Part shown: positions 8,947-21,077 of the stretch, piece by piece
Position numbering within the stretch: the first letter of the stretch is position 1
Layout: every line of letters begins with the position of its first letter
Origin: Candidatus Heimdallarchaeota archaeon
Lineage (GTDB): Archaea; Asgardarchaeota; Heimdallarchaeia; JABLTI01
NCBI GenBank assembly: GCA_018238155.1
Contig: JABCTZ010000019.1
Location: 138,975-162,974 of the forward strand
Length of the DNA stretch: 24,000 nucleotides
Direction: 5' to 3'
Program-made: the position numbers and the translations under genes
Notes under the pieces: generated by a model
What the model was told of the DNA's origin: nothing
Databases searched by the model: none
What the model saw: only the letters and a program-made list of their open reading frames with translations

Positions 8947-11900
8947 CTATTTCTCGGATAATTCTTTGAAAGATCCTGTCATATCTTTAACATGTTCATT
9001 AATGACTTCGGATAAATCGTTCGTTTTGTCAATTGACATGGTAGTTCTCTTAGCAAAACTGGAAATTTGTTTAAGCATTACTTCTTCTAAATCATCTACT
9101 GATTTGAGAAAAGCTTCAGCTATTTCCATATTACTTCTATTTGAAAGTTCAAACTGCTTTCGAGCAAAGAGTGTAGCTTCTCGTTTGACTTTCTGAAGCA
9201 CTCGATCAAAACCATCTAATAAATCAACAATTAATCGGTCTGTACTCAAACCAACTCTTTCACCCATTGCGTTTATCTCTACATCTAAATCTACTAAAAA
9301 TCTGTTGGATTTAGTTTCGCAAGCAGTAATTGTTTTCATCGATGCTTTCTCTATTTTTTCCATATCTTTCTTCAGATTCACATTGAGATTACTCATTGTT
9401 TTTCCATAAAAAGAAAGATGGTTTCGTCCTATTTGATGTAATTCATTTTTGTATTTCTCTATATTTGCTGCTTCTCTTTCTATACGAGTGATTACTTGCT
9501 CAGTTAATTTTTGGCGGATTCGTTCAAGGTTTTCAGTATATCTCTCTTCAATGCCTAATACTGCTTGCTCACCAATAACTGTTACTCTCTCTGTTCTTCT
9601 AGAAGCTTCTGCAGTAATATTACCTACCGTGCTAAATATTGCTCCTTCTATTCCAGCTGTTTTAGTTTCTAATTCTAAAATAGCTCTGTTAGTAATAGAT
9701 GAGGTTTGTTCTCGCAAATCACTAGTTAACTTTTCACAATGCTCGAAAATAATTTCTTTTGAATTACTCAAGATTTCTTGTTGTTTTGTTAAGTCTTCTT
9801 TCAAAGATTGTGTATAACGGTCTCTAAATTCATAGGCATTTCCTATTTGTTTTTCTTGTAACGCATCGATTTTCTTATCTAAGATTTTAAGTTGCTGTCT
9901 GTGCATTTTGTTAATTTCATTATACATATCAATGGATTCATCTTGTTGTTTTTCATTCAGTTCACCAAGTTCAATTTCTTGTTTACTGAGTTCAGCTGCA
10001 GCTTGTCTAAATATTCTGTCTGCACCAGAAGTAATATTAGATCGGATTGTTTGTGCAGTTGAATTAACGCCATTTGATAATTGGCTAATAGCTTTTTCAG
10101 TAAGGGCAGTAATAGTTGAACGAGAAGATTGCTCTTGATCTAATAATGAAGAAGCATCATTAGCAATTGTTTTTTCTACTTTTACGAAGCTTTCTTGCGT
10201 TTTAGAAATATATTTCTCTCGAGCACGTATGAAATTATCTTTAAGTGAAATACTGTCTTTGGTAGTTCGAGAACTTTGACGATTAAGCATGTTATCAATA
10301 GATTTGCTTAATTCCTTTCTAGTACGTTTGAAAGCTTCAATATCGTTAGAAAAGAATCGATTAAGATTATTGTCAGTCCTCTTATAGAATTGTTTATACT
10401 CCGTGCCGAGTTCTACTAGTAATTTAGAAACTGGAAACTTTGTTTCGTCAATTAATCTATCTTGTTCTTTCTTAAAGGTTACAAGTCTGTTGTTAATTGA
10501 TAAACTATCTTTCTTGAGAGTATTGGCAATTTCTTGAAGAGAGCGCCTTGTACTAGCACCTGTTTCAGCACCAAAATGTCTGAAATTTTTAGAAATTTGA
10601 GTGTAGGAATCGCGAATAAGTATTATTAATTCCTCTTTTGAAACTTGATTGTTGTTTTTTATTTGATCTACTAGCTTGTCCATTTTATTCTCTAATGCTT
10701 CGAGGTTTTTGTCAACATTTGAATCAATTCTATCTTGAATTGTTTTAGTGCTTTCACCTCTCCATCGTTCAAGTTTTTTAGTTAAGGAGGAAACTTCTTT
10801 TGAAGTATCCCTTAATTCTTTCTGATGTTTAGTTGAAAATTCTTTGTAAAGTGATTGGAAAGATCTATCTTGTTCTACTAACTTCTTTTCTAAATTATCG
10901 AAATTTGATGAAAAACCCTTATCAATTCGCTCTTTTAAGCGCTTGAGGTCCTTCTCAAAATTTTCTTCTTTCTTTTTAGAATCATTTTTGAATTGCTTGC
11001 TGATATCCTGCAATTCTACTTGCAATCGTCGGTCGAATCTAGTTAGAAAAGTAGTTTCATCTTTTATAATACGTTCATTTAATTTTTCAAGGTTTATCAT
11101 GAGTTCCTTTACAGGTTCAGTTAAGGTCATATTGATAAAATTGACCAGGTTTTGTACACTTGTACCGTTATTATCTACTGTATTTAGAAAGTCAGCTTCA
11201 AGTTTTGCGATAATATCACTAAGATCCATTTGATATTCTGCAACAGCTCCATTTAGAATGATGAGGAATTGTTCTATCATTTCGTTAAGAACATCTCGAG
11301 ACCGCTCTGAAGTATTATGAATAAATTTGTTCTTTTCATTAGTTATTTTTTCAATAGAATTAACAAATTTATCTTCAATAGCATTCATCTCATCGTTTGC
11401 AGAAGAAGTGTTTTTGAGAGATTGTTCAATTAAAATCTCTATTTTATTATCAAAATCATTTGCTAGCTCTTCCGCAGCTTTGCTAAAAATCGAAAAGTGA
11501 TTTTCCATTAAACCGGAAAGTGATTGTTTCTGTTGTTCTATAACCACCTTTTGTTCATCCAAACTTGCAATAGTAATTTTAGAAAAACGCGGTTGGATGG
11601 AATCAACTGTAGTCACCAGTGGCCGTTTTTGTTCTGTTAATACACGAACCATTTCTGTTTGGAAGTTTAGCGATGATTCTTCAATTGCTTCTGTTAAAGA
11701 GCTAATTGCTTCATCAATTTGTTCGTTAATTGGTCGAGTAACTTTCTCTAAATCATCTATACCAGAATCGAGTACGGTAAAAATAATATCCTCAAATTCA
11801 TCCTTAGATGTATTGAAAGCTTCTAAGACTTCATCGAAGGCAGAATTGGCTTTAGTTTCAAAATCAATAATATCACTTACTCGTGCATCAACAGTAGCTT

Positions 11901-12537
11901 CAAGTTGCTTCTCTGCTCTAGCATAAGTAGCAATTAACGTTTTAGAGAAATTTTGCGCTAAAGGGATTAATCCTCGCTTAATATTATCCGTTGTTTCCTT
12001 TGTTCGGATTGAAGATTCTTCAAGAAATTCATTAGATGTCTTTGTTATTCGGTTTAAATCTTTCAAATCCATTTCAATGGATGCAAGGATTCCACTGAAA
12101 GAAGCATCCATAGCCATTTCGAGGTCCTTAATATCTTCCTCGGAACGTTCAGTTCGTTTCTCACGTTCATCTGTACTGGCTTCTCTTACATTCTTTATTG
12201 CTCCCTCTGTGAAATTATGAACAACTTCTGTAGTAGCTTCCAATTCACTCTTGCGTGCTTCAAGAGAACGAGTTAAAGTACTCAAAACATTGATGAATTT
12301 CATAACAGGGAATACAGCAATATAGCGACGATCATCATCATTTCCCACAGGGACAGTGAACCCTCGTTCATGCATAGCCTCTAAAATCGCGTTAATTCTT
12401 CCCTTAGAAACTCTACTTCGTTTTGAGATTTCCATAGGGGTTAATGCACCATCATTTACCAAAGCTTGGAAAACTCGTTTCTCATTTGCAGATAAACGAG
12501 GTAGTAAACCGAGAGCCTTTGCTTCTTTTTTAGACAT
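8947..12537 (-). CDS. Giant (1196 aa) protein: N-terminal TrmB-type winged-helix DNA-binding domain plus about 1100 aa of segmented alpha-helical / coiled-coil sequence
   Basis: Uninterrupted ORF with ATG at 12537 and GGTGA 8-12 nt upstream. Residues ~10-95 (LGLLPRLSANEKRVFQALVNDGALTPMEISKRSRVSKGRINAILEAMHERGFTVPVG..RRYIAVFP) match the TrmB N-terminal wHTH pattern. The rest is E/K/S/N/T/I/L-rich and shows no TM segment, Walker A motif or Cys cluster. Gly/Pro helix breakers occur roughly every 40-70 residues. Confidence 0.85.
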   Translation of the reverse strand: MSKKEAKALGLLPRLSANEKRVFQALVNDGALTPMEISKRSRVSKGRINAILEAMHERGFTVPVGNDDDRRYIAVFPVMKFINVLSTLTRSLEARKSELEATTEVVHNFTEGAIKNVREASTDEREKRTERSEEDIKDLEMAMDASFSGILASIEMDLKDLNRITKTSNEFLEESSIRTKETTDNIKRGLIPLAQNFSKTLIATYARAEKQLEATVDARVSDIIDFETKANSAFDEVLEAFNTSKDEFEDIIFTVLDSGIDDLEKVTRPINEQIDEAISSLTEAIEESSLNFQTEMVRVLTEQKRPLVTTVDSIQPRFSKITIASLDEQKVVIEQQKQSLSGLMENHFSIFSKAAEELANDFDNKIEILIEQSLKNTSSANDEMNAIEDKFVNSIEKITNEKNKFIHNTSERSRDVLNEMIEQFLIILNGAVAEYQMDLSDIIAKLEADFLNTVDNNGTSVQNLVNFINMTLTEPVKELMINLEKLNERIIKDETTFLTRFDRRLQVELQDISKQFKNDSKKKEENFEKDLKRLKERIDKGFSSNFDNLEKKLVEQDRSFQSLYKEFSTKHQKELRDTSKEVSSLTKKLERWRGESTKTIQDRIDSNVDKNLEALENKMDKLVDQIKNNNQVSKEELIILIRDSYTQISKNFRHFGAETGASTRRSLQEIANTLKKDSLSINNRLVTFKKEQDRLIDETKFPVSKLLVELGTEYKQFYKRTDNNLNRFFSNDIEAFKRTRKELSKSIDNMLNRQSSRTTKDSISLKDNFIRAREKYISKTQESFVKVEKTIANDASSLLDQEQSSRSTITALTEKAISQLSNGVNSTAQTIRSNITSGADRIFRQAAAELSKQEIELGELNEKQQDESIDMYNEINKMHRQQLKILDKKIDALQEKQIGNAYEFRDRYTQSLKEDLTKQQEILSNSKEIIFEHCEKLTSDLREQTSSITNRAILELETKTAGIEGAIFSTVGNITAEASRRTERVTVIGEQAVLGIEERYTENLERIRQKLTEQVITRIEREAANIEKYKNELHQIGRNHLSFYGKTMSNLNVNLKKDMEKIEKASMKTITACETKSNRFLVDLDVEINAMGERVGLSTDRLIVDLLDGFDRVLQKVKREATLFARKQFELSNRSNMEIAEAFLKSVDDLEEVMLKQISSFAKRTTMSIDKTNDLSEVINEHVKDMTGSFKELSEK

Positions 12538-12726: not shown

Positions 12727-12837
12727 GGGCCGGTAGATCAACCTGGTAGATCGTCTGATTCGCAATTGACTAAAAGGTTGCAAACCTTTCAACAAAAATT
12801 CAGAAGGCTACGGATTCAAATTCCGTCCGGTCCACCA
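12727..12837 (+). tRNA. tRNA-Ala (anticodon CGC) with a ~34-nt intron in the anticodon loop and an encoded 3' CCA
   Basis: Hand fold. The acceptor GGGCCGG/CCGGTCC carries the Ala identity pair G3:U70. U8, A14, G18G19 and A21 are present. The D-stem is GATC/GATC and the anticodon stem is TCTGA (12754-58)/TCAGA (12800-04). The loop starts TTCGCA and is then interrupted by ~34 nt (about 12765-12798) containing the hairpin AAAGGTT-GCA-AACCTTT. The T-arm is ACGGA-TTCAAAT-TCCGT, the discriminator is A, and CCA sits at 12835-12837. Exact splice junctions cannot be fixed by eye. Confidence 0.85.
12812..12835 (+). repeat. Left copy of a direct repeat (T-arm and acceptor 3' strand of tRNA-Ala)
   Basis: GGATTCAAATTCCGTCCGGTCCAC matches 20087-20110 at 20 of 24 positions in the same orientation (hand alignment). 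Confidence 0.6.
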
Positions 12838-12906
12838 TTTATTCTCTTCTTTCTCTCTCAATTACATGTTTGAACAATTTTCTTCTTCTTGTAAATCAAT
12901 GGATAA

Positions 12907-14601
12907 TTAGTCCTTAACATCCTTCTTACTAAGGTATTGTTCTTTCAATTTATTGCAGAACTCTGTTGTTGCTATCATATCCTTGCCAATCTTATTATCC
13001 TCAATTTCAAGAATTCTACTATTTGGTATTACTGAGAGTAAATCGTGTGTCACCGCAAGAACTGAAGCATTAGTACCCATAACATACTCTACAAAAAGGC
13101 TAATTATTTTGCGTTTATTTAATTCATCCAAGTTGGCTGTAGGTTCATCTATAAGCATTATTCTCGGTGATAGTACTAATCCCAGAAGCATTGTTGCCCT
13201 TTTCTTTTCTCCTTGTGAATAGTTTTCTACTAACTGATTTTTAATATCATCCAACGAGAGATATTGCAATAAATGATTTGTATCATAAAAACTCTGTTTA
13301 CTTTTTTTATTAACTGTAAAATAATTTATATTTTCAATTAAGGTCATAGAGGGATAGAGATTGATATATTGTGAGGAGTAGTAGACTGAGTGGGATCGCA
13401 GTTTATCAATTGCTGTAAAATTAGATGAGAGGATTTCTTCACCTAGAATTCTTATTGAACCGATAAAATCCCTATCAATCCCTGATACAAGGTTCAGTAA
13501 TGTTGTTTTTCCTGTGCCTGATGGACCAATTAGAAACACTAATTCACCAGGATAAATTTGTAGATTTAAGTTTTGTAAGATAAGTTCTTTTCTGGGTGAA
13601 TAATAGAATTTTGTCAAATCTGTACATTCTAAAATACTTGTCTCTTTTTTGTCTCGTTTTCTTGGTTGATATTGTGGGATTTTCACATGTTGGGAAATTT
13701 CTTTTCCGGCAAAGCTTTCTGGTGATTCGGGGTTCTCAAGATAGATTTTCTTTGATTCGTGATTTACAATAAATTTGACTTTCTTGTTTAATGATAGAAG
13801 TTCTTTGATTTGGTTTGGTAGGAATAAGTAAGAATAGCTATCAATATGCGAAACAAAAGTCTCAGAAGCAACAGGTTTATCCTTATCTTCACTTTCCTCT
13901 GGAAAATTTTCCTGAGTATAAATAGCTCCTAATCTACCGTTGAAAATAAGAAAAGATTCAGAGACCACAGAAAAGTAGTTAGGATCATGACTAACAACAA
14001 CAATGGTTGTTTTTTCCTCTTGATTTATTTTTTTAAGTAGATCCAAAATGATTTTTGTGTTCTTTTTATCAAGTTGACCTGTAGGTTCATCAGCTAATAG
14101 TATTGATGGAGAGTTGGTGAGGGAAATTGCTAAACTAACTCGCATACTTTCTCCCATTGAAAGCAGTTTTGCCTTTCTAAGAGCGAGATGTTTGATCTCC
14201 ATTTGCTCTAGTATTTCATCAACTTGTTTTTTTGATTCTTCTAAGCTCTTACCTAAAAGCCTAGTTGGTACCATTAAATTCCGTTCAACAGTAAGCTCTG
14301 GAAAGAGATTATAATGTGGTATTTGATTAAGGAATCCAATATTCTGCAAACGGAAATCATATAATTCTTTCTTTGACATTAAATCAACGTCATGCGATAA
14401 AACATTCACTTTACCACTAGTTGGTTGTTCTAAACCACTGATTATTCTCATGAGAGTAGATTTCCCAGCACCACTGGGACCAATTATTGAAACAAAACTA
14501 CCACTCTTGATATCTAAATCACAACCACCTAAAGCTACAATGGAACGACCTAGTTCAGGCTTAGGATAGATTTTTGTTATTGCCTCAAGATTAATCATCA
14601 T
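12907..14601 (-). CDS. ABC transporter ATPase with two fused nucleotide-binding domains (MacB/LolD/FtsE-like NBDs)
   Basis: 564 aa. NBD1 has Walker A GPSGAGKST, Q-loop LNQ, signature LSMGESMRV, Walker B ILLADEPTGQLD and H-loop VSHD. NBD2 has Walker A GPSGTGKTT, signature YSQGEKKRA, Walker B MLIDEPTANLD and H-loop VTHD. Signatures of the S-x-G-E-x-x-R type resemble the LSGGEQQR of the MacB/LolD family. The start ATG (14601) overlaps the permease stop (ATGA), with GGAGGG upstream. Confidence 0.9.
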   Translation of the reverse strand: MMINLEAITKIYPKPELGRSIVALGGCDLDIKSGSFVSIIGPSGAGKSTLMRIISGLEQPTSGKVNVLSHDVDLMSKKELYDFRLQNIGFLNQIPHYNLFPELTVERNLMVPTRLLGKSLEESKKQVDEILEQMEIKHLALRKAKLLSMGESMRVSLAISLTNSPSILLADEPTGQLDKKNTKIILDLLKKINQEEKTTIVVVSHDPNYFSVVSESFLIFNGRLGAIYTQENFPEESEDKDKPVASETFVSHIDSYSYLFLPNQIKELLSLNKKVKFIVNHESKKIYLENPESPESFAGKEISQHVKIPQYQPRKRDKKETSILECTDLTKFYYSPRKELILQNLNLQIYPGELVFLIGPSGTGKTTLLNLVSGIDRDFIGSIRILGEEILSSNFTAIDKLRSHSVYYSSQYINLYPSMTLIENINYFTVNKKSKQSFYDTNHLLQYLSLDDIKNQLVENYSQGEKKRATMLLGLVLSPRIMLIDEPTANLDELNKRKIISLFVEYVMGTNASVLAVTHDLLSVIPNSRILEIEDNKIGKDMIATTEFCNKLKEQYLSKKDVKD

Positions 14602-17534
14602 GTACCCTCCATAATTGATGGTTGAAACTCAAAGAATTTCTTCTGATAAAAATGTCTGATGAGGATATCTGCTCCTAATAGACTCAATAATATGATTACC
14701 AAATAAAGTGAAAACTGGGCATAAAAAGGAACGTTCAGAATCCAATTCTCTGCTTTAATTAGAACTCTTAGAAGAAAAACAAGAGACCCAATACCTGCGC
14801 CAATGCTTATTGGGAGAATTAGAAGTAAAATAAGCAAGTACTCAACAAGGAAATTTCTTGAAATAGTCTTAATAGAAAATCCTCGATAACGTAAGACAAG
14901 TATCTTCTCTCGTCGAGCATTGATCATATCTTGTACTAAAACAATACCAATAATGAAAAATGAAATACCTCCAAAAATGCCTGTTACAATTGATAATGCT
15001 ATGATACTAGTAGCAAAAGTTGGCAAGTAATCAGGATAAACATCCATCCAAGTTGTATGATCAATTGAATAAGGTATTGATTGTAATGCTAGTAAAAGTG
15101 CATTCATTTCTGATTGTTTTTTGACTTTAATAATAACAGCCTCGTCTATTAAAATAACTGAAATATCTTCATTATGCTGAAGAACTGTTTGGAAAGCTGA
15201 TTCAGTCATAACTAGAAAAGGAATAGAATTTTTTTCAAAATGAAATGTTGAAAGTTGGTAGTCATTTAATAGTATTGGAAAGATACTATACATATCAAAA
15301 ACTTGGAATTCCTTTTCAACAAGCTGCTCATCATCAGCTGTATTATTGTTAAAACCTAACATTATACTATTGTTTTCTGAATCAGAAACAATCCTCCTAT
15401 TAATAAATAGGTCTTCTGACTGTGTGAGAATGGAATTCGGAGCATCACTGAATCCCTCTAAGTCATCTATAGTAATTCCCAAATTATAATCTCTGGAATA
15501 GGATACTGTTGATCCAAAGGTTGGTGAGATAACCAATACTTGGTAATCAACGTCAAATATCGATAACTGGACAAGAGAATAATTTGCAGCTGAATGGACA
15601 GAAGGAAATAATGAAATATCTGAAAGTAAAGACGCAGTGTTGGACGGATTTTCTAAATGAATAGAAACGTCAGAACCGAGATCAAATTTTGCAGAATAGG
15701 TAGCATGTTGTGATATATAAAGTGGAATTAAAAAAGCTTGAATAAAGATTAGAAATGAAAGAGCAATGAAAAAGGATTGTTTTTTGTGATGTTGAAAAGC
15801 AAGAGAAAGATTGTGCAAGACTATCGAGAATTTTTTTGACGCTTTTTTCCAGAGGGATTGCGATAACTTTACTAACTGTTTAAGCAACGAATTTATTAAA
15901 ATAAAAAGCAAACAGATAATTGTTATTGAAATGGAAATATACAAAAAGATATCAAAAATAAAGACTATCTCAGAATCTAAGACAGTCTGTAAATTTAATA
16001 AATTTTTAATAATCAATAATGCTGTCATAGCTAAAAGTGAAAACAAACTAGTTAATCCGATGACCAGTATTTGAGTTTTGGTTGAACCACTAGTGGTAGC
16101 TGTGAAAGAGCTAAGACGATTTGGGTAGAATTTTTCAACTTTTCTGAGAAGAATTACTAAATTGACAAATGAAAAGACAAACAAGAAAATAAAGAACAAT
16201 AATGAGGGGACAAATGCCATACCAAAAGAGATTAGGTTTAGTGTAAGAGAACTTGCCTTTGTTATACCTGAGATAATTCCAAGGTTCAAATATGTTAATG
16301 GAACAGCTAAAATAAGAGCTAAAAAACAAGAAGAACTAATTTCTATAAAACGAGAAATGGTGAATATCTTGAGGATAGTACTACGAGGAAAACCACGAGT
16401 TATGAAATTAGCATAAATGTCTGATAGCTTGAGAGTATTAGATGAAAAACTAAGCCAAAGAATAAACAAAGAAAATACTAATGATGCAAACCCAATGGCA
16501 AAAAGTCGAAACCATTGTTGTTGAATATCCCTTTTAAAGTGAATCATGAAGTCTGCTAATTCAAGAGTGACACTGGCGGAAAGATCATGATAATATGAAA
16601 AACCAGATAAATCAGGTAAATTCTCAGCTGAATTATAAACTTCTTTCAAATCAGCAATTTTTAATGAAGAAAAATCATAGAGGAATTGTATATGGATTTC
16701 TATTTCCGATGATAATAGTTTTGGGAAGGCATGAAAGAAATCAGTTAAGTAATTAATAGAAAGTAATAGCAAAGGTTGATCAGATATAAAGCTTGTATAA
16801 TAATCTAGAATTTTAAAAAGAAAGGGATTTTCCTCTTCAATGATACTTTCAAGCAGGAAATCGTTTGTATTGAAAATATTGGAAATACTAACATTAAATG
16901 GATCAATAACGAATGTGTTATTTACAATTAATTCAGATTCTTCTTGAACAAAAGGTAAAATTGAAATGGTATCACCAATTGAATAGGTGTATTCAAGAGT
17001 AGTCTGTTCTGGCAAATCATTTTTTTGTACTAATATACATTCATCAAAAGAAATAGGAATTTCATTGATTATCTCAAAATATTTAGAGATTTGATTTAAG
17101 GATTCATTCTGTATAAATAAAATATTTGAAGAAGCGATTTCCCCCTCTGAGTAATATTGTAATTGAGCATCACAATTGGATATATAACCATCAATATATT
17201 TGTCTAAATTTGAGTTAAAAATAATGTCATCAATATCTCTATTAATTTCTGCAATAAGGTTTGAGGGAATATTTGATGTATTAGTAAGATAAGAATTAGA
17301 GAAGAAATAACCTATAGAATGTTGTTCATCTCCTTCTAAAGGATGTAAAGATTGGTATTCCAATAAAAAAGAAGACTGTACACTTAAACCAATGAAAAGT
17401 ATTGGGAAAAATAAAAGAAATGGAAGCATAAAACTTAGAATTGAGAATAGTAAGTGTTTTTTATCACTGAATGTAAAAGAAAATGCACAATACAGTAATG
17501 ATTTAATTGAGAAAGTATCTTTTTGAATAACCAT
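14598..17534 (-). CDS. FtsX/MacB-type ABC permease with two FtsX modules, about 10 TM and two large extracytoplasmic domains
   Basis: 978 aa. By hydrophobicity the layout is TM1, ECD1 (~285 aa), TM2-4, TM5-6, TM7, ECD2 (~210 aa), TM8-10. Both modules carry the FtsX-type cytoplasmic motif after the post-ECD helix (ANFITRGFPRSTILKIF and LVLRYRGFSIKTISRNF). Both ECDs carry N-x-S/T sequons. Confidence 0.85.
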   Translation of the reverse strand: MVIQKDTFSIKSLLYCAFSFTFSDKKHLLFSILSFMLPFLLFFPILFIGLSVQSSFLLEYQSLHPLEGDEQHSIGYFFSNSYLTNTSNIPSNLIAEINRDIDDIIFNSNLDKYIDGYISNCDAQLQYYSEGEIASSNILFIQNESLNQISKYFEIINEIPISFDECILVQKNDLPEQTTLEYTYSIGDTISILPFVQEESELIVNNTFVIDPFNVSISNIFNTNDFLLESIIEEENPFLFKILDYYTSFISDQPLLLLSINYLTDFFHAFPKLLSSEIEIHIQFLYDFSSLKIADLKEVYNSAENLPDLSGFSYYHDLSASVTLELADFMIHFKRDIQQQWFRLFAIGFASLVFSLFILWLSFSSNTLKLSDIYANFITRGFPRSTILKIFTISRFIEISSSCFLALILAVPLTYLNLGIISGITKASSLTLNLISFGMAFVPSLLFFIFLFVFSFVNLVILLRKVEKFYPNRLSSFTATTSGSTKTQILVIGLTSLFSLLAMTALLIIKNLLNLQTVLDSEIVFIFDIFLYISISITIICLLFILINSLLKQLVKLSQSLWKKASKKFSIVLHNLSLAFQHHKKQSFFIALSFLIFIQAFLIPLYISQHATYSAKFDLGSDVSIHLENPSNTASLLSDISLFPSVHSAANYSLVQLSIFDVDYQVLVISPTFGSTVSYSRDYNLGITIDDLEGFSDAPNSILTQSEDLFINRRIVSDSENNSIMLGFNNNTADDEQLVEKEFQVFDMYSIFPILLNDYQLSTFHFEKNSIPFLVMTESAFQTVLQHNEDISVILIDEAVIIKVKKQSEMNALLLALQSIPYSIDHTTWMDVYPDYLPTFATSIIALSIVTGIFGGISFFIIGIVLVQDMINARREKILVLRYRGFSIKTISRNFLVEYLLILLLILPISIGAGIGSLVFLLRVLIKAENWILNVPFYAQFSLYLVIILLSLLGADILIRHFYQKKFFEFQPSIMEGT

Positions 17535-17536
17535 TT

Positions 17537-19090
17537 TTAATTCTCTTCTCTGCTTTTTTGTTTTTTCTTATAGCGGTGAAAGTAATAGTAACCAACTCCT
17601 CCAAAAATAATAGGAATAATGATTGAACTGGTTATTATTAGCCAATAATAGGGTGATTTGATTGCTCTAATAAAATAAGGTTTACTTATGTCATTAGCAT
17701 ATATACCATATATACCAAGTGAGGAGATTATGTTATTATCTCCTCCAAAAGAATGATATTGAGAATGATCATTGTATGCATACCCTAGTAAATATGAATC
17801 AAGATAGGAGTTAGATGTACAGTTATAGATAAAACGCGAATGGAAAGGATTTAAATTACTTTCCAGATTAAGATTTATGTAATTCCAATCTCCATTAATC
17901 GTCAATGAGTAATTGATTAAAGCTATTTGTCTGAACTCTGAATGTGCAGTAGATTTTCTATAAATTATTGAAAGTTGCGAATTGTGAATATATGCATCAA
18001 AAATCTCAAGTCCTTTATATGTATAAAATCTAACATTGGGGTCTATTCTTGTATTCAATGTTACATATGCGCTTTCGGATACACTTGTTAAGTTAAAGGT
18101 TGAAGAGGTACTGTTGTATTCAAATAGAGCAAATTCTGTTGGAGAACTTGTTGAAGCAGATAAGGTACAGAGTAAGTAGATGTTGTCTGTTAACTGATTA
18201 TACAACAATCTTCCAACTCTTATGCTACCTTTTATATTATAACCTGGATTGGAGAATGAGCAATTAGAATAATTAGTTAGAGAATGAGTAAGGAAATCGT
18301 ATTCATATAAACGATAGTTATCTTTTCCTGTATCAAAATAGAGAAAATAGGCACTGTTATTATTTGGATTATAACAAGAGGAAATATCCTCTAACATACC
18401 ATATTCAATATATTTATTAGTTGTTTTTTTAGTTTGATTGAGATCAAATACTATGATATCTGTCTTATTCCCTAAAATATTATAGCTAGTTAGTAAGTAA
18501 ATTGCTTGATTATTATCTAAAATATTTACTCCTAAAATACTGGGTGTTGACCGATAGTCAATGAGATAGTTAGTTCCATCAATAAGAAAAATCTTTTGAC
18601 TTTCATTTGAAGTTGAATTATAGTAATAACACCAAAACTCTCGATTATATTCTTGCGTAGTCTCATTTTTCACAGAGAGAGCATAAGCAAAATAAAATGA
18701 TTTCTCCATAGTTGAGGTAAAAAAGTATTGTCTTTCAGGATAAAACCCCTTTTCTTCCAGTAATTCTTTTTCTACTACTTCTCCATCTTCTATAAAAAAA
18801 TGGCTAAGTTTTGTACTATCTTTGTGGTCAGAAATACCAATAAAGTGAAGCTGGTTATCAATTAAATAGCTTCCACATAATCCTAAATCATCACCAGTTA
18901 CTATTAGATTTGAAACACTTAGAAACTCTTTTCCTTGAGCAAAACTTATCATAAATGGAGAAATAAATAAATAAGAAATCAAAAAAATATTGAATAAATG
19001 CTTCTTCCCTAACATATGTAAACATCCTTTTAACCTGTTCTTAACATAATTTTGGTAGCTTTTCTCGTTACAGTTTTTTACTATTTTCAT
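17537..19090 (-). CDS. Type-I membrane-anchored surface protein: signal peptide, beta-rich Tyr/Asn-rich ectodomain, C-terminal TM and basic tail
   Basis: 517-aa ORF. A signal-like segment MLGKKHLFNIFLISYLFISPFMISFAQG begins at Met26 (alternative ATG at 19015). I counted about a dozen N-x-S/T sequons by eye. The C-terminal anchor is WLIITSSIIIPIIFGGVGYYYF followed by HRYKKKQKSREEN. The stop lies 2 nt before the permease ATG (TAA-AA-ATG). Confidence 0.72.
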   Translation of the reverse strand: MKIVKNCNEKSYQNYVKNRLKGCLHMLGKKHLFNIFLISYLFISPFMISFAQGKEFLSVSNLIVTGDDLGLCGSYLIDNQLHFIGISDHKDSTKLSHFFIEDGEVVEKELLEEKGFYPERQYFFTSTMEKSFYFAYALSVKNETTQEYNREFWCYYYNSTSNESQKIFLIDGTNYLIDYRSTPSILGVNILDNNQAIYLLTSYNILGNKTDIIVFDLNQTKKTTNKYIEYGMLEDISSCYNPNNNSAYFLYFDTGKDNYRLYEYDFLTHSLTNYSNCSFSNPGYNIKGSIRVGRLLYNQLTDNIYLLCTLSASTSSPTEFALFEYNSTSSTFNLTSVSESAYVTLNTRIDPNVRFYTYKGLEIFDAYIHNSQLSIIYRKSTAHSEFRQIALINYSLTINGDWNYINLNLESNLNPFHSRFIYNCTSNSYLDSYLLGYAYNDHSQYHSFGGDNNIISSLGIYGIYANDISKPYFIRAIKSPYYWLIITSSIIIPIIFGGVGYYYFHRYKKKQKSREEN

Positions 19091-19135
19091 TTGTTTTTTA
19101 TAAAAAAGAAAAAAAATAATTGGAAAGAGTATTAT

Positions 19136-19792
19136 TTAGTCGTAGTATGGTGCTGGGAAGCTTATGTAATTGATTACATCTTCTACTTGCCAATCATCAC
19201 CATTGGAGTAATAATCATCCATATAATAATACATGGGAGTCCAATTACTTAATACATAACCTGCAGACCACCAAGTAAAATCATCTCGATCACGTCCAAA
19301 AACCTTGGCTCCTTCACGTTCAAAAATCATATTACCTCGGTTTTTAATTTGAAAGACACACATGCGATAATCATCTTGTGAACTATCGCCAAAGTTTGTA
19401 TTTAATGTAGAATCACGTTTTACACCACCATCATATGAATCGATAATGTAGTTAAAGTCATCATAATCACCATTATCATTAGAATCTGAAACACAAATAA
19501 TTATAAAGTCCATATTATTAAGATAAGGACAAACTACTCCATTTGATCCTCCACGAGATTCATAGATATAAAAGTCATTTCGATTTGTTGTTTCATATAA
19601 AAAGTAATGAATGGCTTTACCACCTGTTGATGGCACATCAACTAAAAGAATTAATGTTTCATCATAGTATACACTAGATCCATTGAAATACAGATAACAA
19701 TTATCGTATATATATGAATTACTTAGATTTGAATTCACAAACATTAATCCTAGAAAACTTATTAGTAATAAATTCAAGTATTTTTGTTTCAA
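19136..19792 (-). CDS. Secreted acidic Asp/Asn/Tyr-rich protein (218 aa), first gene of the operon
   Basis: TTG start at 19792 with GGAGAG 6 nt upstream. The next in-frame Met would delete the signal peptide. The signal-like N-terminus is KQKYLNLLLISFLGLMFVNSNLSNS. Acidic loops SDSNDNGDYDD and DDYYSNGDDW resemble D-x-D/N-x-D/N-G calcium-binding loops. Confidence 0.65.
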   Translation of the reverse strand: MKQKYLNLLLISFLGLMFVNSNLSNSYIYDNCYLYFNGSSVYYDETLILLVDVPSTGGKAIHYFLYETTNRNDFYIYESRGGSNGVVCPYLNNMDFIIICVSDSNDNGDYDDFNYIIDSYDGGVKRDSTLNTNFGDSSQDDYRMCVFQIKNRGNMIFEREGAKVFGRDRDDFTWWSAGYVLSNWTPMYYYMDDYYSNGDDWQVEDVINYISFPAPYYD

Positions 19793-20054
19793 TTTATACT
19801 CTCCAGTAAGTTATTCCTTTTCGAGAAACAACTACTTGAAAAAAAAAAGCAGTTCAAACTGATATTTAAACATTTCTCAGTTTTGAATTATTGTCGATTT
19901 AGTTATTTTACTCTTGTAAATATTCTTATTCAAAATGAAAACAATCAATGTTATTTATTATTGGGTCTATACAATTCTGCAATTCAGAAATGAATTGATT
20001 ATCATAAGTGAACACTAAATTTCTATTACTCGTGTTTTTTCTATCAATTTCATT

Positions 20055-20082
20055 AAAATAAAAAAAAACTCTTCAAATGAAG
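20055..20082 (-). terminator. Hairpin plus T9 tract downstream of the PfkB kinase gene
   Basis: On the minus strand the hairpin CTTCA-TT-TGAAG (20071-20082) is followed by T9 (complement of A9 at 20060-20068) and TTTT. It begins about 33 nt after the stop at 20115-20117. Confidence 0.4.
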
Positions 20083-20084
20083 TC

Positions 20085-20110
20085 GTGGATACACATTCCA
20101 TCTGGTCCAC
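20085..20110 (+). repeat. tRNA-Ala 3'-fragment-like sequence (right copy of the direct repeat; T-arm-like hairpin plus acceptor 3' strand, no 5' half)
   Basis: GTGGA-TACACAT-TCCAT-CTGGTCC-A-C aligns to the tRNA-Ala T-arm and acceptor strand. Relative to the tRNA, the second T-stem pair changes C:G to T:A (compensatory), and the T corresponding to U70 is kept. No complementary 5' acceptor strand or D-arm lies upstream. Confidence 0.55.
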
Positions 20111-20114
20111 ATCT

Positions 20115-21077
20115 CTATTCTAGTTTTTCTTTCTGAAATGATCGAGCACCCATTTCTTTGATAGTGCAACTAGCAGCCTTTGTTCCAAGTTTAGCTGCTT
20201 TTTGAACATCTCCATCTTTTAAAAATTCATGAAGGAATCCTGCAATAAATGCGTCTCCTGCTCCTGTCGTGTCAACAACTGTTGTTGGTATTGCTTCTTG
20301 GAAATGCTCTATGCCATCAGAATTCTTTACAAGTACTCCATCTTCTCCTAAAGTTAAAACAGCATTTTCTGAATACTGAAGCATCTTGTTGATTATATCG
20401 TTATGGTCATCGAGATCTGTAAATGCCTTGCCTTCGAATTGATTGGCAAATAAAACATATGGAGGATATTTTTTCATCATTTTTTGTAGCGTAGGCAATG
20501 TTTGTTCAATTACTGAATGTGATGCAAGATCAAAAGTTGTTTTTTGAGCATTCTCTAAAATTTTCCATAATACCTCTTGTGAATTGATAATTAGGTATCC
20601 TTCAATATGGTTTATTCCTGCATTGGTGATAATCTTTTCAGCAACTGAATCAGGATGTAAAATTTCGGAAGCTCCCCAGTGCACAATAAAGGTCCGATCT
20701 TTATCTGGTGTGATAAGTGAAAAGAGCTGTCCTGTTGCTTTTTCTTTATCTAAAACACTGACAGGTTCTACTCCTTCTTCTTTCAAGATTTGCATAAAAT
20801 GCCAACCATCTTCATCATCTCCATGTTTACCACAAAAGGATACATTTGAACCCAATTTAGCTAAATTGGACATAATATTTGCTGCACTTCCCCCGGGATT
20901 TTTAAAAATCGTTGTTTCAGGCATTCCTTCTAATCGTTTGATAATATCTGTAATGATCTCGAAATTAACTCTCTTGTGTCCACCTTTCTCAATTTCTACA
21001 TCTAGTAAAAATGGATAATCTACTTCAACTGTTAAATCCCATAATACTTGCCCATAACCAAGAATTGTTTCCTTCAT
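20115..21077 (-). CDS. PfkB-family (ribokinase / adenosine-kinase-like) carbohydrate or nucleoside kinase
   Basis: 320 aa. The N-terminal substrate motif is PGGSAANIMSNLAKLG and the C-terminal PfkB signature is DTTGAGDAFIAGFL. Confidence 0.9.
   Translation of the reverse strand: MKETILGYGQVLWDLTVEVDYPFLLDVEIEKGGHKRVNFEIITDIIKRLEGMPETTIFKNPGGSAANIMSNLAKLGSNVSFCGKHGDDEDGWHFMQILKEEGVEPVSVLDKEKATGQLFSLITPDKDRTFIVHWGASEILHPDSVAEKIITNAGINHIEGYLIINSQEVLWKILENAQKTTFDLASHSVIEQTLPTLQKMMKKYPPYVLFANQFEGKAFTDLDDHNDIINKMLQYSENAVLTLGEDGVLVKNSDGIEHFQEAIPTTVVDTTGAGDAFIAGFLHEFLKDGDVQKAAKLGTKAASCTIKEMGARSFQKEKLE

Follow-up and report, generated by a model that had tools for sequence, protein, structure and literature searches.

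The stretch of DNA analyzed here, referred to as the window, comprises 24,000 nucleotides (nt) of contig JABCTZ010000019.1 from a Heimdallarchaeon; homologues of its PfkB-family kinase carry the source names Heimdallarchaeota or Asgard. The window contains a tRNA-Ala(CGC) gene on the plus strand, while the large genes around it all lie on the minus strand, in the order topoisomerase IA, a 76 amino acid open reading frame (ORF), PfkB, a 218 amino acid protein, a 517 amino acid protein, an FtsX-like permease, an ATP-binding cassette (ABC) ATPase with two nucleotide-binding domains, then the tRNA, a TrmB-type helix-turn-helix (HTH) protein and EamA. The four ORFs from the ATPase to the 218 amino acid protein (positions 12907-19792), together with about 0.3 kb of spacer, are bracketed by the intact tRNA gene and by a displaced tRNA-Ala 3' fragment that ends 4 nt before the PfkB stop codon, and re-examination of the window bore out this arrangement as given in a preliminary description. 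The probable origin of the bracketed operon as an island integrated at the tRNA gene is the subject of this analysis.

The intact tRNA-Ala(CGC) gene, which encodes its CCA and would form the attL boundary of the island, occupies positions 12727-12837. It matches Rfam family RF00005 over 12727-12834 with 53.5 bits (gathering score 29), covering model positions 1-71 with a 34-nt insertion in the anticodon loop, and it is predicted to fold as a cloverleaf with a G3:U70 pair and a CGC anticodon. The insertion is a tRNA intron at the canonical 37/38 position (12765-12798, plus strand) that lengthens the anticodon arm, and its removal gives the intron-less form present in two close relatives, L002 and L005 (related loci are denoted by L numbers). 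Because of this intron, ARAGORN reported no tRNA in the window.

The 3' part of the gene recurs in the same orientation at the other end of the operon. The 24-mers GGATTCAAATTCCGTCCGGTCCAC (12812-12835) and GGATACACATTCCATCTGGTCCAC (20087-20110) are identical at 20 of 24 positions, and recomputation in the window returned the coordinates, orientation and identity that had been claimed for them. The proximal repeat, the putative attL core, extends over 12810-12835 (plus strand) and comprises, in the live tRNA, the T-arm and the 3' acceptor strand. The distal repeat, a putative decayed attR, extends over 20085-20110 (plus strand), 4-7 nt from the PfkB stop codon (20115-20117, minus strand). It resembles the live tRNA of L002 (23 of 26 positions, GTGGATTCAAATTCCATCCGGTCCAC) better than that of the window. 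The distal fragment is also present in L001, a contig of GCA_018238085.1 with an identical PfkB gene that belongs to the same species. The weaker similarity that had been described a few bases upstream (GAAG) is unconvincing, as the ungapped match comprises only 3 of 11 bases. A homology running past the tRNA end into the 3' codons of PfkB was considered and rejected as not significant, as 70 of 4792 control windows scored equally.

The match between the two repeats stands far above the background, as the preliminary description had expected. The runner-up placement of the tRNA-Ala 24-mer on either strand of the window reaches only 14 of 24 positions, and in 1000 dinucleotide-preserving shuffles of the remaining window a score of 19 was obtained once and a score of 20 never. 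With the base composition of the window and 48,000 placements, a Poisson-binomial calculation gives 3.5e-5 matches expected by chance, and 0.0019 after Bonferroni correction for the choice of 24-nt sub-window within the tRNA. The fragment is part of the 3' untranslated region of PfkB and is adjoined by a short minus-strand hairpin and T9 run, which would suit a chance similarity or a PfkB hairpin or terminator that merely resembles a T-arm. These statistics, an unremarkable predicted fold of the fragment region (z=-1.2) and the colinearity of the fragment with genuine tRNA 3' ends in relatives, described below, leave this explanation with a next to negligible probability.

The T-stem of the fragment differs from that of the live tRNA of the window, and this difference had initially been read as a compensatory change within the fragment. 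Comparison with relatives reverses the polarity. The fragment reads GTGGA/TCCAT, exactly as the live tRNA of L002 does, and a single step separates it from GTGGA/TCCAC, which the outgroups have; the live tRNA of the window has ACGGA/TCCGT. The T:A pair of the fragment is thus the older host state, and the change belongs to the live tRNA, where it either evolved or was imported with the element. An older state in the fragment is expected if the fragment is the displaced 3' end of the host gene.

The decisive comparison named in the preliminary description, a relative with tRNA-Ala next to PfkB and without the operon, is available among the close relatives. Four of them retain the flanks (L002/L008, L003, L004 and L005), with PfkB genes 84-86% identical to that of the window at the nucleotide level. 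L002/L008 and L003 contain the operon. L004 and L005 are free of it, with 9 and 13 nt, respectively, between the tRNA-Ala 3' end and the stop codon of PfkB. In alignments, the fragment and the PfkB end of the window are colinear with the tRNA 3' end and the PfkB end of L004 and L005, and the live tRNA of the window and its downstream flank are colinear with those of L002. The position of the fragment is therefore that of the tRNA 3' end in loci that lack the 7.3 kb. This colinearity, together with the lack of any trace of a 5' tRNA half upstream of the fragment in the alignments with relatives, agrees with the earlier view that the fragment is a displaced 3' piece and not a gene.

The same chromosomal order is conserved more widely. 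The operon-free arrangement topoisomerase-PfkB-GNAT-tRNA-Ala(CGC)-TrmB-EamA was found in the more distant Heimdall lineages L006/L007, L018, L020, L023 and L032/L033, in which PfkB is 58-64% identical to that of the window at the amino acid level, and in at least six lineages the operon is not in the tRNA slot. Orthologous tRNA-Ala(CGC) genes are present in L002, L004-L007 and L033 (in the close relatives at L004 8651-8758, L002 14005-14078 and L005 1966-2039), and the TrmB-HTH gene adjoins the tRNA in L002, L004-L006, L018, L020, L023 and L033. In every wider Heimdall lineage examined, a small GNAT acetyltransferase gene fills the slot between the tRNA and PfkB (L006 10983-11444, L023 2824-3300, L018 3650-4108, L020 1002-1457, L033 10980-11429); the clade of the window has lost it. 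L022 (1-2409) shows a different order and orientation, with tRNA-Ala(CGC), a 171 amino acid ORF corresponding to the TrmB N-terminus and a window-like PfkB; either its lineage is rearranged or its assembly is chimeric.

The operon is rare. Outside the small clade of the window, it is always found elsewhere, with the permease and ATPase genes followed by nitroreductase, Zip, MFS, methyltransferase and RtcB genes. The Zip/MFS/methyltransferase/RtcB neighbourhood was seen in L009, L010/L031 and L034/L035, and four lineages other than that of the window have the operon at this conserved Zip/MFS/RtcB locus. L031 and L033 are from the same genome (GCA_050009915.1), in which the home locus of the operon (L031) and the operon-free tRNA locus (L033) are about 750 kb apart on one 1.55-Mb contig. 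The tRNA-Ala location of the operon is therefore derived. Upstream of the home locus (L010 619-8293, L031 1-3783) lie genes for a 619 amino acid Cas1-like protein with HTH, a PD-(D/E)XK nuclease, LAGLIDADG and NERD, which may constitute a mobile or defence island. L010 differs from the 99%-identical L031 by a deletion that extends from a tetratricopeptide repeat (TPR) gene into the permease.

The divergence of the operon indicates that it has occupied the tRNA locus for a long time. Between the window and L002, the permease (87.5%) and ATPase (93%) genes are about as similar at the nucleotide level as the flanking topoisomerase (88%), TrmB (88%) and PfkB (84%) genes, so that the insertion predates the split between the two, and this age fits the three to four substitutions and the lost CCA of the fragment. 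This co-divergence and the lack of a recombinase in the island agree with the earlier characterization of the island as old and immobilised. Compared with GCA_050009915.1, amino acid identity is 84% for the ATPase and 79% for the permease, and 75% for topoisomerase, 69% for EamA, 59% for PfkB and 56% for TrmB. Although the permease diverges about twice as fast as topoisomerase between the window and L002, it is more alike than topoisomerase in this wider comparison, so that vertical descent would predict a more diverged operon than is observed. Judged from these few genes, the operon looks younger than the split of the hosts, which suggests a transfer from a related lineage.

A scan of metagenomes for the 26-nt tRNA-Ala 3' end returned 20 contigs, three of which carry two copies in the same orientation, all at tRNA-Ala(GGC). 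In L013, an intron-bearing tRNA-Ala(GGC) is followed by 2516 nt with two beta-propeller-repeat proteins and an exact 27-nt 3' fragment. In L014 and L026, the tRNA is followed by 1070 nt with a toxin-antitoxin set composed of UPF0175, DUF433 and DUF5615/PIN proteins, and then by the fragment; the repeat extends over about 50 nt with 92% identity and has an exact core of 33 nt. L017 and L021 represent empty sites matching this 1.1-kb cassette. The fragments of the window, L013 and L014/L026 all extend from the region of the variable loop or T-arm through to the 3' end, which argues for a defined crossover site and not for random joining. No integrase was found in the cargos of L013 and L014/L026, and no end motifs are common to the cassettes of the window, L013 and L026. 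As the short contigs reveal only short insertions, this sample of cassettes is biased against large integrase-bearing elements. Directly before its exact tRNA fragment, L013 (3480-3504) contains an 11-bp palindrome (AAATATAGGAA-G-TTCCTATATTT), which also precedes the exact fragment in L012 and could be a terminator or a protein-binding site.

Introns vary at both tRNA-Ala loci. At tRNA-Ala(CGC), the window and L004 have identical 111-nt genes that include the 34-nt intron, which is missing from L002, L005 and all wider lineages. At tRNA-Ala(GGC), the cassette-bearing L013, L014 and L026 possess an intron and the empty L017, L021 and L028 do not. The tRNA-Ala(GGC) of L013 (880-988) corresponds to the L021 tRNA plus a 31-nt intron and was missed by Rfam at the gathering threshold, which indicates that standard scans under-call intron-bearing tRNAs in these genomes.

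The relatives and the recent cassettes also bear on a different history, in which the fragment would be a second complete tRNA-Ala that decayed in place, the operon having always stood between two tRNAs and the empty sites having arisen by deletion. A deletion between direct repeats could indeed produce such sites, and the co-divergence of the operon core with the flanks between the window and L002 is compatible with a long residence. However, the missing 5' half is difficult to reconcile with this history, all wider lineages have a single tRNA-Ala(CGC) and GNAT in the slot, and the operon has another conserved home locus. Moreover, L013 and L026 demonstrate recent and exact fragments that consist of the 3' part only. 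We consider a decayed second tRNA very unlikely.

The locus is also subject to exchange by homologous recombination. The empty L005 and the filled L008 are 99.7% identical over 1.8 kb of the TrmB gene and only 90-91% identical on the tRNA/PfkB/topoisomerase side, the identity changing sharply at a breakpoint that precedes the tRNA 5' end by about 25 nt (L005 2040-2140, L008 14079-14180). Among the four close relatives, all four combinations of operon and tRNA intron occur. This switch in identity and these combinations mark the locus as a recombination hot spot, at which the island allele, present or absent, now spreads together with its flanks. A clean placement of operon or intron on a tree of the four close relatives was attempted and failed, owing to the reticulate histories that recombination has created.

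Such flank exchange raises the possibility that the insertion itself occurred without a recombinase. DNA of a related strain that already contained tRNA-Ala and the operon could have recombined homologously on the TrmB/tRNA side and been joined illegitimately inside the T-arm of the recipient, leaving the 3' piece behind. The L005/L008 breakpoint shows that exchange of this kind takes place here, and the lack of an integrase is also in line with it. On the other hand, this route merely shifts the origin of the tRNA-operon junction to the donor, and it does not account well for the shared start region of the fragments in three independent insertions (window, L013 and L014/L026). Homology-facilitated illegitimate recombination is accordingly given a low, although not trivial, probability.

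Casposons are known to target tRNA 3' ends and to duplicate their target. A transposon- or casposon-type insertion, for which the tRNA 3' end would constitute a long target-site duplication, would match this habit, and the Cas1-like gene lies only a few kb upstream of the home locus in L010/L031. However, neither of the recent cassettes has terminal inverted repeats (L013 p=0.5, L026 p=0.28), and the only match in the window is marginal, of low complexity and 31 nt from the end (p=0.024). In addition, Cas1, PolB and transposases were not detected in the three cargos (window, L013 and L014/L026). Such an insertion is even less plausible than a decayed second tRNA.

The segment 12838-20084 is, in our judgement, probably an old, integrase-less island that recombined site-specifically into the T-arm/acceptor 3' part of tRNA-Ala(CGC). 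In the ancestor of the small clade, the tRNA 3' end would have been located directly against the PfkB stop codon. A circular DNA with at least the last 26 nt of tRNA-Ala and with the ABC-transporter/surface-protein cluster, which other Heimdall lineages have elsewhere in the chromosome, would then have recombined with the tRNA gene. This would have rebuilt the tRNA at the near end and displaced the original 3' end by 7.3 kb to PfkB, where it would since have decayed by three to four substitutions and the loss of CCA. The recombinase may have acted in trans or may have been lost later, and the island would now be a fixed cargo, whose presence and absence are swapped between related strains when homologous recombination exchanges the neighbouring DNA. 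The comparison with relatives supports the integrated island at a tRNA 3' end originally proposed. We regard as shown the repeat, the operon-free sites of L004 and L005, the other home locus, the age and the missing mobility genes; the involvement of a tyrosine recombinase and of a circular intermediate is what we infer.

Several observations weigh against this interpretation. No integrase, excisionase or split integrase was detected in the island or at its ends when all four ORFs were scanned with Pfam and NCBIfam, as the preliminary description had already noted for integrase and excisionase genes. The island is fully taken up by the four ORFs, and the free space is too short for an integrase gene. 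Likewise, int(N) and int(C) halves were not found at the att sites, which offer only 69 nt at the tRNA end and the promoter region with a possible paralogue remnant at the other. Among the virus and provirus contigs searched, neither the tRNA-Ala 3' end nor a relative of the permease was found. L002 contains the operon without a fragment beside PfkB, the best score in L002/L008 being equal to background, and the scar is thus documented in one species only (window and L001). The presence of operon and intron is incongruent with the phylogeny of the flanks, so that the polarity among the four close relatives is not cleanly resolvable. Finally, at silent sites the island does not show the deviating composition expected of a tRNA-targeted island. 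The greater AT-richness that had been perceived by eye holds for the total GC content (30.1% in the island, 33.7% in the flanks) and does not extend to the GC content of third codon positions (GC3), which is 0.21-0.26 in the island genes and 0.20-0.27 in the flanks. The difference is confined to codon positions 1 and 2 and therefore reflects amino acid content, which rules out a silent-site anomaly.

The cargo begins 69 nt downstream of the tRNA CCA, and this island end between the CCA and the ATPase stop codon (12838-12906) is common to the window and L002, too short for a recombinase gene and without homology to the home locus of the operon in L031. The ABC ATPase (564 amino acids, 12907-14601, minus strand) is of the LolD/FtsE/MacB type, with two Pfam ABC_tran domains (E=1e-58) and LolD and FtsE as top NCBIfam matches, and is, at the amino acid level, 92% identical to its counterpart in L002 and 84% identical to that in L031. 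The FtsX-like permease (978 amino acids, 14598-17534, minus strand) has a weak Pfam FtsX match at its C-terminus (E=2.7e-4) and only 7 relatives among 5.8 billion proteins; its amino acid identity is 85% to L002 and 79% to L031.

Neither of the two remaining proteins matches a Pfam or NCBIfam family. The 517 amino acid protein (17537-19090, minus strand) has hydrophobic N- and C-terminal segments and is read as a putative surface protein, with paralogues at the L031 home locus, while the 218 amino acid protein (19136-19792, minus strand) has a hydrophobic N-terminus and is read as secreted. Their amino acid sequences are only 52% and 41% identical to those of their counterparts in L002, as opposed to 85-92% for the adjoining transporter genes, which points to hypervariability of the putative surface and secreted proteins, by fast evolution or by replacement.

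The spacer upstream of the operon (19793-20086, minus strand) is presumed to be a promoter or leader region, and the hairpin and T9 run downstream of PfkB lie within it. By blastn, window positions 19605-19972 match L008 6861-7234 with 73% identity, and this presumed promoter/leader region is thus common to the window and L002. Around 19926-20033, weak similarity (scores 36-43) suggests a decayed remnant of a paralogue of the 218 amino acid gene. In L002/L008, a paralogue fragment of the small secreted protein that lacks a start codon is found directly after the PfkB stop codon (L008 6694-6883, score 120). L003 (2098-2712), with a PfkB identical to that of L002/L008, is about 430 nt shorter there, and an ORF overlaps the PfkB end; as L003 is a contig of 3x coverage, the missing stretch may reflect a deletion in the strain or a collapse in the assembly.

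The flanks are of a conserved chromosomal type. In relatives, NCBI gives the PfkB-family kinase (20115-21077, minus strand; Pfam PfkB, E=2e-50) the name adenosine kinase. On the other flank, 5' of the tRNA, the TrmB-type HTH protein (1196 amino acids, 8947-12537, minus strand; Pfam TrmB, E=4e-8) has no NCBIfam match and a very long tail that looks like a coiled coil by eye.

The locus presents an Asgard archaeon that moved or acquired a whole envelope-transport/surface-protein operon, with the scar, the empty sites and the original locus all in evidence. It also identifies tRNA-Ala genes as sites of repeated insertion in Heimdallarchaeia, which are of interest for the origin of eukaryotes, and illustrates how such islands afterwards pass between strains by ordinary recombination of their flanks. 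A more far-reaching proposal is that Heimdallarchaeia host small, integrase-less cassettes that use the T-arm/acceptor 3' end of tRNA-Ala isoacceptors as attachment site, with their insertion and exchange carried out by a recombinase encoded elsewhere in the genome. We regard this proposal as speculative and rather doubtful. If true, it would represent a tRNA-anchored form of cassette capture, loosely like integrons or cis-mobilizable elements (CIMEs) and possibly coupled to the gain of tRNA introns, with a toxin-antitoxin module, beta-propeller surface proteins and the ABC/surface-protein operon as cargos. The type of event itself is textbook knowledge; what the locus contributes is a clean example and a lead towards integrase-less cassettes, and not a new principle.

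Integration into a tRNA 3' end, in which the gene is rebuilt and the original fragment displaced, is the classical outcome of tyrosine recombinases in bacteria and archaea (PMC8371274), and tRNA-gene-targeted islands are ascribed to these enzymes by Williams 2002, as cited in PMC8813620. The window island shares with such islands an intact tRNA at one boundary, a 3' fragment of like orientation at the opposite boundary, a repeat spanning the T-arm through the 3' end, relatives with empty sites and a cargo that is located elsewhere in other genomes. In contrast, it lacks integrase and excisionase genes, its silent-site composition is typical of the host and its repeats have decayed. Its cargo is a chromosomal-type ABC/surface-protein operon and not a set of virus or plasmid genes.

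Within the same host phylum, elements of Ca. Heimdallarchaeum also use tRNA genes as insertion sites for cargo, including HeimV1 at tRNA-Gly(CCC), the aloposons and the CRISPR-Cas operons C3/C4 (Wu et al. 2022, PMC8813620). These elements carry integrases, giant genes or viral genes, whereas the window island is small, integrase-less, located at tRNA-Ala and found in a different Heimdall lineage. The trapping of an archaeal element at a tRNA gene after integration is likewise a feature of the gene-capture model for 'suicidal' integrases of the SSV type (She et al., as reviewed in PMC8371274; PMC7253208). The int(N) and int(C) halves that define that type are not beside the att sites of the window. 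In the tRNA gene disruption model for a tRNA-Thr gene of Caldiarchaeum, the fragment is a 5' piece and a 1.8-kb insert encodes a recombinase (Sugahara et al. 2012, PMC3293823). The two cases share population heterogeneity at a single tRNA locus, where a tRNA fragment is combined with inserted DNA and with the gain or loss of an intron; they differ in that the fragment of the window is a 3' piece and that no recombinase accompanies it.

A further structural parallel is offered by CIMEs, att-flanked islands without recombination genes that derive from integrative elements by deletion or accretion, as among the relatives of ICESt1 in Streptococcus. Flanking att repeats without recombination or transfer genes are found in the window island and in the cassettes of L013 and L014/L026. 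The likeness is one of structure, across domains of life, and no related integrase-bearing element was found for the window island, as opposed to the CIMEs. With its att-like direct repeats and without an integrase, the window island could move only with a recombinase supplied in trans, and on the basis of its sequence features it would best be classed as an old, integrase-less, CIME-like island.

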